Counted from the stretch's first letter, positions 6,554 through 13,703 are shown. The stretch: DNA of 64,000 nt from a bacterium (GCA_002687905.1 NZBM01000015.1:2811-66810), one strand, 5' to 3'. Made by a program: numbers and translations. The notes: generated by a model not told the origin, from the sequence alone.

Positions 6554-7456
6554 ATGTTCGTTGTTAAACACAGAAAGATTTTTTATACGATAACTGCAGT
6601 AATTGTGTTGGCTTCTCTTATTTCAGTTGGGGTCTGGGGGCTTAATTTTGGAATAGATTTCACAGGTGGAACGATAATGGAAATTAGTTATCCAAATGAG
6701 AAGCCAGGTAAAGAAAATTTAGTAAATAGATTGGAAGAAGTTGATATTGGCGGCTTTTCACTTCGTGAGACTGGAAAAAATGGATTTATACTGCGTACCC
6801 AAAATCTTTCAGAGGAAAGTAGACAAGAGATAGTAGGTCTTCTTACAATTGACGGTCAATTTGAGCTCGTTGAAGAGAGGGTGAATTCAATTGGGCCTGT
6901 TATAGGGGAAGAGCTTAGAAATAAAGCGCTAATTGCAATTGCGGTAACAATAGTAGCGATAATTCTTTTTGTTGCTGTTGCTTTCAGAAAAGTGAGCAAG
7001 CCTGTATCTTCTTTTAAATATGGACTAATTGCAATTGTTGCACTTCTTCACGACATTGTTGTGCCGGTTGGTATATTTGCGGCTCTTGGATATTTCTTGG
7101 GAGCTGAAGTTGATGTTCTTTTTGTGATGGCGCTTCTTGCAATTCTTGGCTATTCGGTAAATGACACGATAGTGGTGTTTGATAGAGTCCGAGAAAATCT
7201 AAAGCTAAATCATGAATTAAACAGAAAAGAGGATTTTGAGTTAACTGTTGGAAAAAGCCTCAATCAAACATACGTCCGCTCTATAAATACTTCAATTACA
7301 ACTATATTTGTGCTCCTTGCGCTATTTTTCCTAGGAGCCACTGCCACGCAAGACTTTGCATTGGTGCTTCTTACAGGAGTAATAGCTGGAACGTATTCTT
7401 CTATATTCCTTGCGACACCACTTTTGGTGACAGTAATGAAGTGGGGAGATAAATAG
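6554..7456 (+). CDS. secF: protein translocase subunit SecF
   Basis: SecF N-terminal signature GIDFTGGTIMEI plus a C-terminal six-TM domain. ATG at 6554 lies two nt after the secD stop. The track start at 6530 is a TTG that overlaps secD. Confidence 0.85.
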   Translation: MFVVKHRKIFYTITAVIVLASLISVGVWGLNFGIDFTGGTIMEISYPNEKPGKENLVNRLEEVDIGGFSLRETGKNGFILRTQNLSEESRQEIVGLLTIDGQFELVEERVNSIGPVIGEELRNKALIAIAVTIVAIILFVAVAFRKVSKPVSSFKYGLIAIVALLHDIVVPVGIFAALGYFLGAEVDVLFVMALLAILGYSVNDTIVVFDRVRENLKLNHELNRKEDFELTVGKSLNQTYVRSINTSITTIFVLLALFFLGATATQDFALVLLTGVIAGTYSSIFLATPLLVTVMKWGDK

Positions 7457-7698
7457 TATTTAAATAAAAAGGGTAAGGGCCGCACTTCCGAAGAAGGCGG
7501 TCCTTGGTAGTTGTACGCGGTACTGGCAGTTTTCGGCGGCTAGGCGATGTTGATGAGGCCGTCACCTTGAGGCGACCGATCATCGTTCGGAATCCTGTCA
7601 TAGCAGGACCTTCTCTTCTCATTGCTTTCGCAGACCAATACTCACGTACAATTTGGTCTGTTTGGATACTAACAGGCACCCAAAATTCGTCATTAGCC

Positions 7699-7728
7699 CC
7701 ACCAAATCGCCATATGGCGATTTGGTGG
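7699..7728. repeat. 30-bp perfect palindrome CCACCAAATCGCCAT|ATGGCGATTTGGTGG
   Basis: Read directly. It lies in the GC-rich leader about 200 nt upstream of the 16S 5' end. Confidence 0.9.
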
Positions 7729-7739
7729 ACCGGTAGCTT

Positions 7740-7768
7740 GACTTATATAGCCATATAAGTAGACTATT
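7740..7768 (+). promoter_or_regulatory. candidate rRNA promoter (TTGACT, about 16-nt spacer, TAGACT)
   Basis: A -35-like hexamer with a weak -10 about 140 nt upstream of the 16S. Speculative. Confidence 0.25.
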
Positions 7769-7907
7769 ACCTACTGCTCTTGAGCAGTTTTTAGTTGCTC
7801 ATTGAAAATTTAGTAGCATACACAACAAAAAAGAGAGTTATCTCTTCTTTTGTTCTGTCCATTTCTTTTAAATCCGGTCTTCTCTAGCTTGCTAGAGAGA
7901 ACCAATT

Positions 7908-9607
<1,700 letters not shown>

Positions 9608-9845
9608 TGGAACCGTCGATGCATTTTATGCACTGACTTAATTGGTTGATATTCTATACCTCTGCCTGCCGGCAGAGGAATCTGAAGATTTTTCTGTAGT
9701 TGCAGTCAGACAAAGGTATAGAAATAAGCAATAGTGTTGTACTTTTATCTACACTCGTTTTCTCGCATATGCGGGAGGCGCCGGACGTGCGTTACCGGTA
9801 GGGTGGACAGAACAAAAGAGGGTGTAACTAAAAAATAATCACAAA

Positions 9846-9879
9846 AAATTTGCGACCCAACCGGTTGAGTCGCAAATTT
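9846..9879. repeat. 34-bp near-perfect palindrome (one mismatch) AAATTTGCGACCCAACC|GGTTGAGTCGCAAATTT
   Basis: Read directly in the 16S-tRNA spacer. It shares the core CAACCGGTTGAG with a 16-bp palindrome at 17641-17656. Confidence 0.85.
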
Positions 9880-9928
9880 TGGCCTGCCTCGCCGGCAAGG
9901 CGGGCTTTAAATATAAGGTTTTAAAGAA

Positions 9929-9957
9929 TTGACTTCTTCAATTTGATGTGGTAGTAT
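9929..9957 (+). promoter_or_regulatory. sigma70-type promoter (TTGACT, 17-nt spacer, TAGTAT)
   Basis: Near-consensus -35 and -10 hexamers with optimal spacing, about 35 nt upstream of the 9991 ORF and its GAGGAGAG Shine-Dalgarno site. Confidence 0.6.
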
Positions 9958-9990
9958 GCAGATAGTTGAAATAAATCGAGGAGAGATGGA

Positions 9991-10185
9991 ATGAGCCTCC
10001 TGAAAAGAGAGGACCAGACGTGGTCCATTCGGCAAGTTTCTTTCCAAGCTGTTGTGGCGTTTCTGTTCGTCTACTTGGCTATCGTGGTATTCCGGGTTGG
10101 TGGGGTTGCTTTCGGGCTTCCGGAGCCAGACCGCATTGCCGTTTTTGATCTCCCAGTCCAGTGGCTTCTTGGGCTACTGAAATGA
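9991..10185 (+). CDS. small hydrophobic protein (64 aa, one predicted TM helix) encoded inside the rRNA spacer
   Basis: Own promoter, a Shine-Dalgarno site GAGGAGAG 5-8 nt upstream, a predicted TM stretch AVVAFLFVYLAIVVFRVGGVAFGL, and a terminator hairpin right after the stop. Its codon usage is GC-rich and unlike neighbouring genes, so a structured RNA cannot be excluded. Confidence 0.4.
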   Translation: MSLLKREDQTWSIRQVSFQAVVAFLFVYLAIVVFRVGGVAFGLPEPDRIAVFDLPVQWLLGLLK

Positions 10186-10188
10186 GAA

Positions 10189-10224
10189 GGGCCCGGCGCA
10201 AAGCGCCGGGCCCAAGAAGTTTTA
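10189..10224 (+). terminator. intrinsic terminator hairpin (GGGCCCGGCGC-AAA-GCGCCGGGCCC followed by AAGAAGTTTT)
   Basis: An 11-bp GC stem directly after the small ORF. The U-tract is interrupted. Confidence 0.55.
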
Positions 10225-10262
10225 ATGGTTTGAGCTTTTGAAGTCATTTTGATACTATTTTT

Positions 10263-10288
10263 GCGATGCTCTGCATCGCTTTTTTAAA
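10263..10288 (+). terminator. intrinsic terminator (GCGATGC-TCT-GCATCGC followed by TTTTTTAAA)
   Basis: A 7-bp stem plus a T6 tract. It is a second terminator between the small ORF and tRNA-Ile. Confidence 0.6.
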
Positions 10289-10320
10289 TAAATATGCGGT
10301 GTGGTTACAAAACACAATAT

Positions 10321-10394
10321 GCGGGTGTAGCTCAGTTGGTTAGAGCGCGTCACTGATAATGACGAGGTCCTAGGTTCAAATCCTAGCATCCGCA
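10321..10394 (+). tRNA. tRNA-Ile (anticodon GAT)
   Basis: Cloverleaf folds by hand. Acceptor GCGGGTG/CATCCGC (one G-U), D-arm GCTC..GAGC, anticodon loop CTGATAA, T-arm CTAGGTTCAAATCCTAG, discriminator A. CCA is not encoded. Confidence 0.85.
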
Positions 10395-10395
10395 C

Positions 10396-11235
10396 ATGAA
10401 AATCGGATTTATAGGTCAGGGCTACATTGGGAAAAATTATGCTGACGATTTTGAAAATCGTGGTTACGATGTCGTTCGTTATGCCCTTGAGGAGCCTTAC
10501 AATGGTAATAAGGAAAAAATAAAAGACTGCGATATTGTCTTTGTTGCCGTCCCAACCCCTACAACACCAAAAGGATTTGATAGCTCAATTATTGAAGACG
10601 CACTGACTTTAGTTGGGGAAGGGAAAATTGCAGTTATTAAATCAACGATACTTCCTGGTACCACAAAAGATTTACAAGAGAAACACAAAGATATCCTACT
10701 CCTCTGTTCGCCAGAGTTTTTATCTGAAGCAACAGCTGCGCACGATGCCGCAAGCCCTTTTTCGAATATAGTAGGTATTCCAGAAGGGTCTCACAAATAC
10801 AAGGAAGCTGCCGATAAAGTACACTCTGTACTGGCTGAAGCCCCGTTTGTACTTACCTGCTCAAGCGTTGAGGCAGAAATTATCAAATACACCCACAATG
10901 GTAGTGGTTATACCCAGATAATGTTTTTCAATATTATGTATGATCTTGCCAACAAACTCGGTGGTGATTGGGAGCAAATTGAAAAAGCTGTGAAGGCAGA
11001 CCCTATGATATGTAATCGTTACGCTAGCCCCGTTCACAAAACTGGTCGTGGTGCAGGAGGACATTGTTTTATAAAAGACATTGCAGCACTTCGAGAGCTT
11101 TATGGCGAGACTATTCCGGAAGACAATAAAGGGTTTGAGGTTTTAGAAAGTATGGAGGAGAAGAACAAAAAGCTTCTAAAGGACTCTGACAAGGATTTAG
11201 ATTTACTTGAGGGAGTTTACGGAAAAGATATATAA
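10396..11235 (+). CDS. NDP-sugar dehydrogenase (UDP-glucose/GDP-mannose dehydrogenase family), short 279-aa form
   Basis: GFIGQGYIG Rossmann motif at the N-terminus, VFVAVPTP, KSTILPGTT, SPEFLSEATAAHD, and the catalytic-Cys motif GGHCFIKD. It appears to lack the usual C-terminal UDP-binding domain. ATG lies 2 nt after the tRNA 3' end. Confidence 0.7.
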   Translation: MKIGFIGQGYIGKNYADDFENRGYDVVRYALEEPYNGNKEKIKDCDIVFVAVPTPTTPKGFDSSIIEDALTLVGEGKIAVIKSTILPGTTKDLQEKHKDILLLCSPEFLSEATAAHDAASPFSNIVGIPEGSHKYKEAADKVHSVLAEAPFVLTCSSVEAEIIKYTHNGSGYTQIMFFNIMYDLANKLGGDWEQIEKAVKADPMICNRYASPVHKTGRGAGGHCFIKDIAALRELYGETIPEDNKGFEVLESMEEKNKKLLKDSDKDLDLLEGVYGKDI

Positions 11236-11243
11236 AGCGTTAG

Positions 11244-11290
11244 GCCGTCGCGTATTGCGACGGCCCTGAATCCGCTATAAGCGGTTTTTA
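11244..11290. terminator. bidirectional terminator region (two hairpins, GGCCGTCGC-GTATT-GCGACGGCC and CCGCT-ATAA-GCGG followed by TTTTTA)
   Basis: Read directly between convergent ORFs. Confidence 0.5.
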
Positions 11291-11503
11291 TCTGCCTTCG
11301 CCGATGACGGCGATTCCGCAGTCGTCCCCAGGCTTGAACCTCTTCTGCTTTGGCTCCTTGTGATCTGGCGCAAGGCCAGGACGGCTGCCTTGCAAACCGC
11401 CGCAGCGACGGCCCTCCGGTATGAGATCGGTTTCGGGGGTTTCTTCCCCAAGGTCTTTGATGACAGCCTCTGGTTCTTGTTGGGTTTTTTTGTTGCTACT
11501 CAA
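11288..11503 (-). CDS. possible small Pro/Glu/Lys-rich protein (71 aa, TTG start) in a GC-rich patch
   Basis: GGAGA Shine-Dalgarno site 6 nt upstream of a TTG start. Low-complexity sequence. It overlaps the 5' extension of the + strand ORF. Local GC is clearly above the flanks. Weakly supported. Confidence 0.2.
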   Translation of the reverse strand: MSSNKKTQQEPEAVIKDLGEETPETDLIPEGRRCGGLQGSRPGLAPDHKEPKQKRFKPGDDCGIAVIGEGR

Positions 11504-11600
11504 TTTTCTTCTCCCTAGAGTTTGTGTCTATTCCGCTAATTATTATGGCTTATATCAAGTGTCTATACAACCAAGCTACACTGATGTAGTGTGGTCAGAT

Positions 11601-12071
11601 ATGGCAAATAAGGTAACTCTTTTGGTAAAAGATTCCTATCTCGCATATATTAAAAACAGTGTTGGGAGTAATGCCTTTCGCAATCTGTATGCAAAAGTTG
11701 GGAAAAGTAAGAAAGACATATTAAGAGACGGCGATCTCTCGTGCGCTTTTTTTGTCTCGGCAATGCTAATACAGTTTGCTCTTATTGAAAAACCACACGC
11801 AACGGTTGAAGGCCTTGAGCGGGATATAAAAAAGAGCGGGTGGAAGAAAATAAAAAGACCAAAAATTGGAAGTATTATATTTTGGAGAAAAGGACTACAA
11901 AAAGGCGAGGAACATCGCCACGTTGGTTTTTATATTGGTAAAAATAAAGCAGTGAGTAATAGCGACAAAAAGCGCCAGCCAGCAAACCACCATTACACTT
12001 TTGGAAAAGTAGGAGGGAAAGCTAAAAGAAAAATGGATTCAATTTATTGGCATAAAAAGCTAGACTCTTGA
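11601..12071 (+). CDS. CHAP / NlpC-P60-like papain-fold cysteine hydrolase (putative cell-wall amidase/peptidase)
   Basis: Cys motif DLSCAFFV, then about 55 aa downstream KIGSIIFW...HRHVGFYIG as the His motif. Start at MANKV (11601). The track ORF starts at 11421, and that version would add a possible signal-like N-terminus. Confidence 0.4.
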   Translation: MANKVTLLVKDSYLAYIKNSVGSNAFRNLYAKVGKSKKDILRDGDLSCAFFVSAMLIQFALIEKPHATVEGLERDIKKSGWKKIKRPKIGSIIFWRKGLQKGEEHRHVGFYIGKNKAVSNSDKKRQPANHHYTFGKVGGKAKRKMDSIYWHKKLDS

Positions 12072-12281
12072 CCGAATTAGTCTCATTTAGTTAAGCTAGA
12101 TTTAGCTATGAAAGGGGGGCTAAGCAATGATACTTCTGAGTAAGTTTATACGCTCTCTCCGTATTTGGTGGAGGACAGTTCAATTCTTCATCCCATATGA
12201 CATCAAAATCATGGAGGAGAGAGACGAAAGCCGACAAACTGGCTGGAGATGATAACTAAAAACAAGGCGATGACAATCTAG

Positions 12282-13703
12282 TCATCGCCTTTGGTGTTTT
12301 TTTGTGACAAGTTTTGGTATTTCTTCTATAAGACCATCTAGATCTCCAGAAGTCATTAGTATAATTACCTCGTCCCCAGAAAGACCCTCTTCAAGAGTTT
12401 TTATTATTTTCTCTGGTTTTTCAAAACCCCTTACATTTTTGTGATTAGCGCTTGCCCTCTCAACTATTTCTTCAAGTGTAAGTTGTGCGTGAGTTGCTGC
12501 GCCCTGCTCTGCAGGTTTATACACGAGCACTTCATCTACTCCGTCAAACACATAATCATACCCAGTAATTTTGCCTTTGTTTCTTAAACTAAAAGTATGT
12601 GGCTCAAATACTGTAACGATTTTTCGTTTTGGGAAATGTACTTTCATTGCCTCAAATCCAGCACGCGCCTTTTCAAACGAAGAGCCAAAGCCTTCATATA
12701 CTGGAATTGAGGATTTTGGGGTAAGAAGGTTAAGACGTCGGTTAACTCCTTTAAATGTTCTTACTCCCTCTGCTAGTTCGCCCGGAGTAATGAGCTCCTT
12801 TTCAAGAAGAATGGCGGAGACCCCCACGATATTTTGAATGTTGTGTGCACCGAGGAGCGTTGTTTCTAATAGCGCTATACTTTCGCCATTTTTTGTAAGG
12901 GCAAACGTAGAAGCTTCACCGTACAAAATATCTTTAGCACTCCAAACTCCTTCATTTAGCCCGTAACTTGTAACTCCCTCATAGTTTTGAGCAAGTCCTT
13001 TTGCTTCACTGTTGTCAAAGCAAATAATTTTTTTGGATTCCTTTGGAAGAGATTCCAATAGCTCCTTAAATGGTTTTAGATAATCTTCAAGGGTGGGGAA
13101 TACATTTATGTGGTCGTGTGAAGCAGATGTGAGAAGCACATCTCTGGTGTTGTAGTGAAGAAACTTTGCTCTATCGTCGTTGTGTGCTGATGGGTATTCA
13201 TCACCTTCAAGGACAAATACATTACCATCTCCAAGCTTTGCGGTTTTTTCAATACCCAGAGGTACTGCGCCTATGAAATAGCTCGGGTCTTTTCCTGCGT
13301 TAATGAGGCAATGAGCTAGTAGGGCTGTACAAGTTGATTTTGCGTATGAGCCTGTCACCACTATGTTTTTTGTATTCTTGGTGAGCTTGCCAAGCACCTG
13401 CGCAAATGATTTTATTTCTATACCACTATCAATAGCCGCCCTAGCTTCTTCATTTGTGTCAGGCGAGAGTTTGGCTTGCTTTCCCATTACTATAAGGTCA
13501 GCATCTTTAGGAATATTTTCCTTTGAGTAGCCCTCCTTAAAATTGATCCCAGCGTCTTTAAGGTGTGTACTCATTGGGGGGTAGAAACCCACATCAGAAC
13601 CGGTTATCTCCCACCCACTGTCGCGAAGAAGAAGGGCAGTGCTACCCATGCCAACCCCTGCTATCCCTATAAAATGGGCCTTTTTACTCCCTTTTTCTTT
13701 CAT
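12282..13703 (-). CDS. Mur ligase family protein (Mpl / MurC-like UDP-N-acetylmuramate ligase)
   Basis: N-terminal HFIGIAGVGMGSTA and the Mpl-type YPPMS motif. Mur-ligase central P-loop VTGSYAKST, and a C-terminal domain. Confidence 0.8.
   Translation of the reverse strand: MKEKGSKKAHFIGIAGVGMGSTALLLRDSGWEITGSDVGFYPPMSTHLKDAGINFKEGYSKENIPKDADLIVMGKQAKLSPDTNEEARAAIDSGIEIKSFAQVLGKLTKNTKNIVVTGSYAKSTCTALLAHCLINAGKDPSYFIGAVPLGIEKTAKLGDGNVFVLEGDEYPSAHNDDRAKFLHYNTRDVLLTSASHDHINVFPTLEDYLKPFKELLESLPKESKKIICFDNSEAKGLAQNYEGVTSYGLNEGVWSAKDILYGEASTFALTKNGESIALLETTLLGAHNIQNIVGVSAILLEKELITPGELAEGVRTFKGVNRRLNLLTPKSSIPVYEGFGSSFEKARAGFEAMKVHFPKRKIVTVFEPHTFSLRNKGKITGYDYVFDGVDEVLVYKPAEQGAATHAQLTLEEIVERASANHKNVRGFEKPEKIIKTLEEGLSGDEVIILMTSGDLDGLIEEIPKLVTKKHQRR

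Follow-up and report, generated by a model that had tools for sequence, protein, structure and literature searches.

The 64,000-nt stretch of DNA analysed here (the window), from a marine CPR bacterium of the Paceibacteria type, carries a 16S rRNA gene followed by a tRNA-Ile(GAT) gene, and the segment between them contains a short open reading frame (ORF) framed by promoter- and terminator-like signals (the cassette). The question raised by this locus is whether the cassette is, as proposed in a first-pass annotation, an independent unit embedded in the spacer of an rRNA operon, and whether its product is a protein or an RNA. NCBI lists the ORF under QF858_01775, a hypothetical protein in a MAG labelled 'Candidatus Pacebacteria bacterium', and the window was matched at 99.9% identity by contigs of marine metagenomes (Tara Oceans, JGI). 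The gap between the 16S end (9607) and the tRNA-Ile start (10321), as delimited by Rfam and ARAGORN, was 713 nt, in agreement with the earlier estimate of about 710 nt. Features of the locus are collected in Table 1.

Table 1. Features identified or predicted around the 16S and tRNA-Ile genes (positions in the window).
Feature	Position	Strand	Basis
16S promoter, TTGACT-16-TAGACT	7738-7765	+	promoter scan
16S leader, 5' arm of processing stem	7781-7861	+	inverted repeats I1, I12
16S rRNA gene with CPR-type insertions; 3' tail GGATCAATTCC, without CCTCC	7908-9607	+	Rfam RF00177
16S trailer; conserved blocks 9718-9757 and ~9797-9832; 3' stem arm 9804-9841	9608-9841	+	alignment
Two hairpins, likely 16S-unit terminators	9845-9908	+	terminator scan, folding, relatives
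Cassette promoter, TTGACT-17-TAGTAT, extended -10 (TG)	9929-9957	+	promoter scan
SD-like GAGGAGAG, without anti-SD partner in host	9978-9985	+	sequence, 16S tail
64-codon orphan ORF, ATG start, one strongly hydrophobic segment	9991-10185	+	ORF call
11-bp all-GC hairpin 3 nt past ORF stop; putative 3'-end or stability hairpin, weak U-run	10189-10213	+	
Candidate tRNA-Ile promoter, TTGAGC-17-TACTAT with TG, 8/12	10230-10258	+	relaxed scan; putative function
Hairpin GCGATGC-TCT-GCATCGC then T6, canonical intrinsic terminator	10263-10285	+	terminator scan
tRNA-Ile(GAT)	10321-10395	+	ARAGORN; Rfam 10321-10394
UDP-glucose/GDP-mannose dehydrogenase-like gene, 279 aa	10396-11235	+	ORF and homology

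The canonical rrn operon has the order 16S, tRNA-Ile, tRNA-Ala and 23S, with co-transcription of the genes and RNase III processing stems, and in the ancestral 16S-23S spacer tRNA-Ile comes first. The window likewise has a 16S leader-trailer stem and a tRNA-Ile(GAT) gene after 16S but differs from the canonical arrangement in the terminator-type hairpins and new promoter that precede the tRNA and in the absence of tRNA-Ala and 23S. At the Rfam gathering score (and with ARAGORN), 16S and one tRNA were the only such genes in the 64-kb window, and no 23S was present either in the 54 kb downstream of 16S or in the 7.9 kb upstream, which bears out the earlier statement that the rrn operon is unlinked. 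Similarly, a 23S motif was found in 0 of 39 related loci that extend at least 150 nt past a recognisable 16S end, within up to 4 kb. Unlinked rRNA genes, defined by a 16S-23S distance of more than 1500 bp, have been documented for CPR/Patescibacteria (Brewer et al., bioRxiv 10.1101/705046), and the window 16S, with 23S absent for 54 kb downstream, falls within this definition. The window resembles these cases in that 16S stands alone but differs from them in that tRNA-Ile is still near 16S (713 nt in the window and approximately 890 nt in the related locus L138), with an independent gene between the two.

The 16S gene matched RF00177 over the full model length (1371 bits; 1700 nt) and carries, at 7977-8052 and 8137-8318, only short insertions that resemble hairpins. 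In two relatives, L140 and L141, the 16S gene has an insertion of approximately 817 nt near its 3' end, at the equivalent of window position 9565, and part of the L141 insertion (756-1063) was recognised by the group I intron model of Rfam (59.5 bits). The 16S promoter and the hairpin after it were kept, at 84% identity, in the closest relative, L132 (positions 12705-12760), which is syntenic with the window upstream of 16S (SecF 81% identical at the amino acid level) and whose contig stops 65 nt into the 16S gene. Pairing of the 16S leader with the trailer was indicated by inverted repeat I1 between 7836-7861 and 9804-9829 (26 nt, 85% complementary) and was extended by inverted repeat I12 between 7781-7796 and 9826-9841. 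A construct of leader and trailer in which 16S was swapped for a short linker folded into a single long helix (z = -9.1). The helix constitutes a classical 16S processing stem and, going by established rRNA biology, would be cleaved by RNase III.

Related loci were obtained by scanning metagenomes for the 16S tail, which gave L138 to L141 and L143 (approximately 90-92% identity over aligned 16S segments), and from a scan of a genome collection with a broad 16S pattern, which gave 119 loci labelled Paceibacteria or Saccharibacteria (16S identity 87% or less). The window trailer aligned with those of L138, L139, L141 and L143, i.e., relatives of about 90% 16S identity, through the common blocks AACAAGCAATAGTGTTGTACTT.TATCTACACTCG and GAACGAAACAAAAGAG up to approximately position 9832, where conservation stopped after GAACAAAAGAG..ACT and gave way to complete divergence. 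The trailer is followed in the window by one hairpin with an A-tract, stem and U-tract (9845-9880) and by a second hairpin (9883-9908); in relatives this place is taken by a canonical terminator (A-run, hairpin, T-run). The two hairpins likely terminate 16S transcription. Position 9881, between them, was G in the window and A in 5 of 5 other environmental contigs, this being the sole difference among environmental contigs across 9600-10650.

The leader-trailer stem, the post-trailer hairpins, the end of trailer conservation and the terminator-then-promoter layout of relatives together place the cassette outside the rRNA transcription unit. The proposal that it is embedded in the 16S-tRNA spacer was therefore not upheld, as the 16S unit would close before the cassette promoter, with the stem and its own hairpins (9845-9908). 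Under the model favoured here, a stand-alone 16S unit would run from the promoter at 7738 through leader, 16S and trailer, would form the processing stem and would end at 9845-9908.

Three sets of predicted signals lie between 16S and the tRNA, namely the post-trailer hairpins, the cassette promoter and the hairpin with T6 at 10263-10285. The cassette promoter reported in the first-pass annotation was recovered at 9929-9957 as a near-consensus site with a TG extension. Promoter-like matches of at least 9/12 across 7000-11500 numbered 5 against 5.4 expected from shuffles, and the cassette promoter is credible mainly through its location; sigma-70-like promoters occupy the same position in relatives (e.g., TCGACA-17-TAGTAT in L139 and TTGACA-17-TAAAAT in L143). 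Transcription from this promoter would start at approximately 9964, with some 27 nt of leader ahead of the ORF, and would give a monocistronic unit in which the ORF is followed, 3 nt past its stop codon, by the GC hairpin and then by the T6 terminator. The described 64-codon ORF with a strongly hydrophobic helix was also recovered (9991-10185), the best 19-residue Kyte-Doolittle mean being 2.54; its tryptic peptides include EDQTWSIR and VGGVAFGLPEPDR. Of the two intrinsic terminators claimed, the one at 10263-10285 stood as canonical, whereas the GC hairpin at 10189-10213, which is followed by AAGAAGTTTT, passed the terminator scan on the minus strand only and is non-canonical on the plus strand. 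The same layout of a stop codon and then a GC hairpin occurs after two bona fide window genes, which end at 11235 and 37001, and speaks for the ORF as a gene. The hairpin with T6 would presumably act in transcription termination and the GC hairpin as a 3'-end or stability element. The view of the cassette as a discrete, promoted and terminated unit could thus be retained with respect to its own promoter and 3' hairpins but not with respect to a position within the rRNA transcription unit. A possible pairing of cassette positions 10092-10121 with 16S positions 8802-8831 (30 nt, 70%) was judged to be at chance level.

Between promoter and ORF, the first-pass annotation had placed a Shine-Dalgarno (SD) site. 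The motif, GAGGAGAG, is present at 9978-9985, yet the 16S tail of the same organism is not complementary to it. The 16S 3' tail is GGAUCAAUUCC, with AAUUCC in place of CCUCC, rather than GGAUCACCUCC, and a tail of the AAUUC type was found in most relatives with a readable 16S 3' end. The replacement tail shows good conservation, being GGAUCAAUUCC, or in many relatives GGAAUAAUUCAAUU, in the window (9590-9607) and loci L013 to L143. No enrichment of SD motifs was seen, GGAG, GAGG or AGGA occurring upstream of 2-4 of 50 window genes against 3-4 expected. Given a 16S tail without CCUCC and this lack of enrichment at 50 genes, GAGGAGAG is not credible as an SD site. Loss of the anti-SD motif has been reported in a subgroup of Parcubacteria (PMC9297842). 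Translation of the ORF would proceed without an SD site, as in other genes of the organism.

Comparison of the region with that of relatives indicated that the cassette is absent from all of the loci fetched, including the 119 broad-pattern loci, which were informative on layout and 16S tails, and that different short genes occupy the same slot. The order 16S, trailer, terminator, promoter, short ORF and terminator was found in L138, L139, L141, L143, L044, L049 and L122, and in all of L138 to L141 and L143, as well as in the more distant L044, L049, L119 and L122, a canonical terminator came after the trailer and was succeeded by a sigma-70-like promoter with its gene. The slot contains a Cys-rich protein of 62-65 aa in L139 and L143, a two-helix membrane protein of 72-87 aa in L139 and L140/L141, other small hydrophobic ORFs in L044, L049 and L122, a LemA-like protein in L119 and, in L138, an acidic protein of 131 aa with its own terminator, followed by a promoter and by tRNA-Ile approximately 890 nt after 16S. 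Many Nomurabacteria-type loci have a protein of approximately 300 aa (MK.VGILRGG...) in this slot, which by its motif is read as D-Ala-D-Ala ligase-like. Alignment scores of 161 for the Cys-rich pair and 84 for the two-helix pair, compared with 25-27 +/- 5 for shuffles, and a pN of 0.31 against a pS of 0.70 for the Cys-rich pair identify conserved sequences and hence indicate that the slot holds real small protein genes. The motif of the Cys-rich family (L139, L143) is MN.NT.E.T.QPKSSWQ..CINP.C.NPSTLE and that of the two-helix family (L139, L141) is H[IV]R..G.VL.RF ... [KR]PWL.

The window ORF shares with these proteins its position and unit architecture (after the 16S terminator, own promoter, ORF, terminator) but has no detectable sequence similarity to the Cys-rich or two-helix proteins. 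Alignment scores of the ORF against the relatives' slot proteins were 26-29, inside the shuffle range (25-26 +/- 5), and the ORF was rejected as a divergent member of the two-helix family (p = 0.19-0.48). Homologues of the dehydrogenase-like gene, compared for synteny, were at most 76% identical and belonged to unrelated glycosylation clusters in which neither a tRNA nor a 16S gene lay upstream. The cassette had been called unusual, a description that does not fit the occurrence of the same layout in L138 to L143, L044, L049 and L122 and the known unlinking of rRNA genes in Patescibacteria; the arrangement of 16S, short unit and tRNA-Ile is ordinary for the clade. Nothing indicates a new kind of system. 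A bolder reading, given very little confidence here, is that the position just past the 16S terminator may be a conserved slot of the clade, always taken by a short gene that brings its promoter and terminator with it, while the content (Cys-rich, two-helix, GC-rich orphan) changes fast. The window ORF would then be a recently born or acquired membrane peptide, or a small RNA, with expression tied to stable-RNA synthesis through a 16S-like promoter.

Downstream of the cassette, a relaxed promoter scan of 9840-10330 gave two sites only, both on the plus strand, i.e., the cassette promoter and a candidate between the hairpins at 10230-10258. If the latter is used, its transcripts would begin within the 5' arm of the T6 hairpin and would thereby escape the terminator. 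As a third unit, tRNA-Ile and the sugar-dehydrogenase gene behind it are probably co-transcribed. The start codon of the dehydrogenase-like gene is backed by a homologue, L006, with the N-terminus MKIGFIGQG. The ATG abuts the 3' end of tRNA-Ile with zero spacer (10394-10398), and 3' processing of the tRNA would make the dehydrogenase mRNA essentially leaderless; in L138, only 11 nt separate tRNA-Ile from the next ATG. Both the window (10291-10306 versus 10316-10341) and L138 (approximately 838-875 versus 919-956, in the orientation from the 16S tail) have, shortly before the intact tRNA-Ile, a decayed partial copy of its 5' part together with a few of the bases that precede it. This copy is much clearer in L138 than in the window and may be a duplication or integration scar.

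The reading preferred for the cassette, to which a probability of about one half is assigned, is that of an independent unit for an orphan, lineage-specific small membrane protein, the most likely product of the ORF. The ORF would be translated, its peptide would insert into the membrane and, if expressed, it would be another uncharacterised small membrane protein in an orphan-rich group. In favour of a gene, an ORF with an ATG start and 64 codons or more that fills the span from the start at approximately 9964 to the hairpin was obtained in only 1.0% of dinucleotide shuffles, a proportion that rose to 5.6% when any start codon and both strands were allowed. Against it, the ORF matched itself only, whether 5.8 billion protein clusters were searched by word index or 1.84 billion representative proteins exhaustively by phmmer, and no homologue was found at the DNA or protein level among more than 130 related loci fetched. 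Pfam, NCBIfam and PADLOC gave no family for the ORF at E <= 10. No SNPs were seen in the cassette among environmental copies (99.9% identical). The codon usage of the ORF was found to be GC-rich and unlike that of neighbouring genes, as stated in the first-pass annotation, with a GC of 0.53 and a GC3 of 0.57 compared with means of 0.40 and 0.36 for 50 long window ORFs, which puts its GC in the top 1-2% of gene-sized windows. With composition controlled, the codon score was -0.21 per codon compared with -0.17 +/- 0.16 for spurious window ORFs (rank 81 of 142) and lay below the 5th percentile of real genes.

This codon score, which is the same as that of spurious ORFs, together with the lack of a protein homologue, would also be expected if the unit yielded a non-coding small RNA of approximately 230-320 nt, extending from about 9964 to 10213 or 10285, in which the ORF is incidental. 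Such a product would suit the cassette GC of 0.53 in a genome of 0.41, since stable RNAs are typically GC-rich where the genome is AT-rich, and the framing of the region by a strong promoter on one side and a 3' hairpin of high stability on the other. It is considered unlikely in view of the fold of the body (9964-10186), for which z was +0.26 and 116 of 200 shuffles were at least as stable, a result that argues against strong RNA structure; the z of -2.1 for 9958-10222 is owed to the terminal hairpin. In addition, covariance-model scans of the cassette with Rfam gave no family match even at E <= 10 and nothing at the gathering score, the best sub-threshold matches being hairpin-only and of 23 bits or less, no DNA homologue was present among the more than 130 related loci, and a transcript-spanning ORF is expected in only 1-5.6% of shuffles. 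The idea of a structured RNA misread as an ORF found no support, a weakly structured small RNA being still compatible with these results. Atypical composition and codon usage, an SD-like motif of no use in the host, orphan status and the fast turnover of the slot among relatives might equally be taken as marks of a non-functional segment, i.e., decaying foreign or older DNA in which an open frame was kept by chance. This is rather improbable given that promoter, ORF and stop-proximal hairpin are intact and correctly ordered, that Pfam found nothing in five alternative-frame ORFs and no pseudogene-type similarity was seen in any frame, and that a phage and plasmid blastn search, a protein scan of viral contigs and a DNA scan with the hairpin gave no cassette match and hence no donor in these collections. 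The foreign insertion suggested earlier has composition in its favour, with neither a donor nor a homologue found.

Another improbable explanation, given about the same weight as a non-functional segment, is that the 9929 promoter belongs to the tRNA-Ile operon, the ORF region being a long and possibly inserted leader with attenuating hairpins. The promoter is of a strong stable-RNA type with the same -35 hexamer as the 16S promoter, the other candidate upstream of the tRNA is weaker (8/12 with TG), and tRNA-Ile in L138 likewise lies approximately 890 nt 3' of 16S. However, a canonical hairpin with T6 stands between the 9929 promoter and an essential single-copy tRNA, and the L138 tRNA has its own promoter past the terminator of the preceding gene. 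Direct repeats (10/11 nt) on either side of the ORF and hairpins, TTGAAATAAAT at 9966 and TTTAAATAAAT at 10283, could be seen as traces of an insertion into such a leader, but these are short and AT-rich and, with 15 similar families in 3 kb, are at chance level. The cassette had also been considered a source of a toxin-like peptide, and it does resemble type I toxins with antisense RNA in its short ORF, hydrophobic helix, own promoter and strong hairpin, although 64 aa is at the upper end of their size range. In a scan with the sigma-70 consensus, no minus-strand promoter-like site of at least 8/12 was found in 9840-10330, even at this relaxed threshold, which argues against a type I antisense partner, and no toxin or defence family was matched in Pfam, NCBIfam or PADLOC; the suggestion of a toxin-like peptide was not borne out.

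The cassette is one of three GC-rich islands in this part of the window. A stretch at 7465-7735, between the SecF stop codon (7456) and the 16S promoter (7738), had fold z values of -5.1 on the plus strand and -5.3 on the minus strand, and of -3.3 without its terminal 15-bp palindrome (7699-7728). It had no Rfam match and no homologue in the fetched loci and is missing from the syntenic L132. This stretch could be an undescribed structured RNA or 3' UTR element and is a better RNA candidate than the cassette. In L132, approximately 1.8 kb (10917-12700, corresponding to 7457-7737 in the window) separate SecF from the conserved 16S promoter and contain two small ORFs on the minus strand and a gene for a 183-aa protein with an AAA_18/AAA_17 domain in place of the 280-nt structured island of the window. 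A third island (11286-11520), in which GC reaches 0.63, lies past the double hairpin that follows the dehydrogenase-like gene and is subject to conflicting calls, namely a minus-strand gene of 71 aa in the public annotation and an N-terminal extension of a plus-strand ORF of 216 aa; it showed no excess fold (z = -0.3 and -1.0) and no Rfam match. No relation was found among the islands at 7465-7735, 9981-10250 and 11286-11520 or between them and the extra segment of L132.

The importance of the locus beyond its annotation is small. It cautions that SD-like motifs in Parcubacteria that have lost the anti-SD should not be read as ribosome-binding sites. With respect to the organism, the locus presents what appears to be a fragmented rRNA operon in an uncultured marine CPR bacterium, in which 16S keeps its processing stem and would have gained a terminator, the former spacer tRNA-Ile would now belong to a separate unit and a short, probably lineage-specific gene stands between the two.
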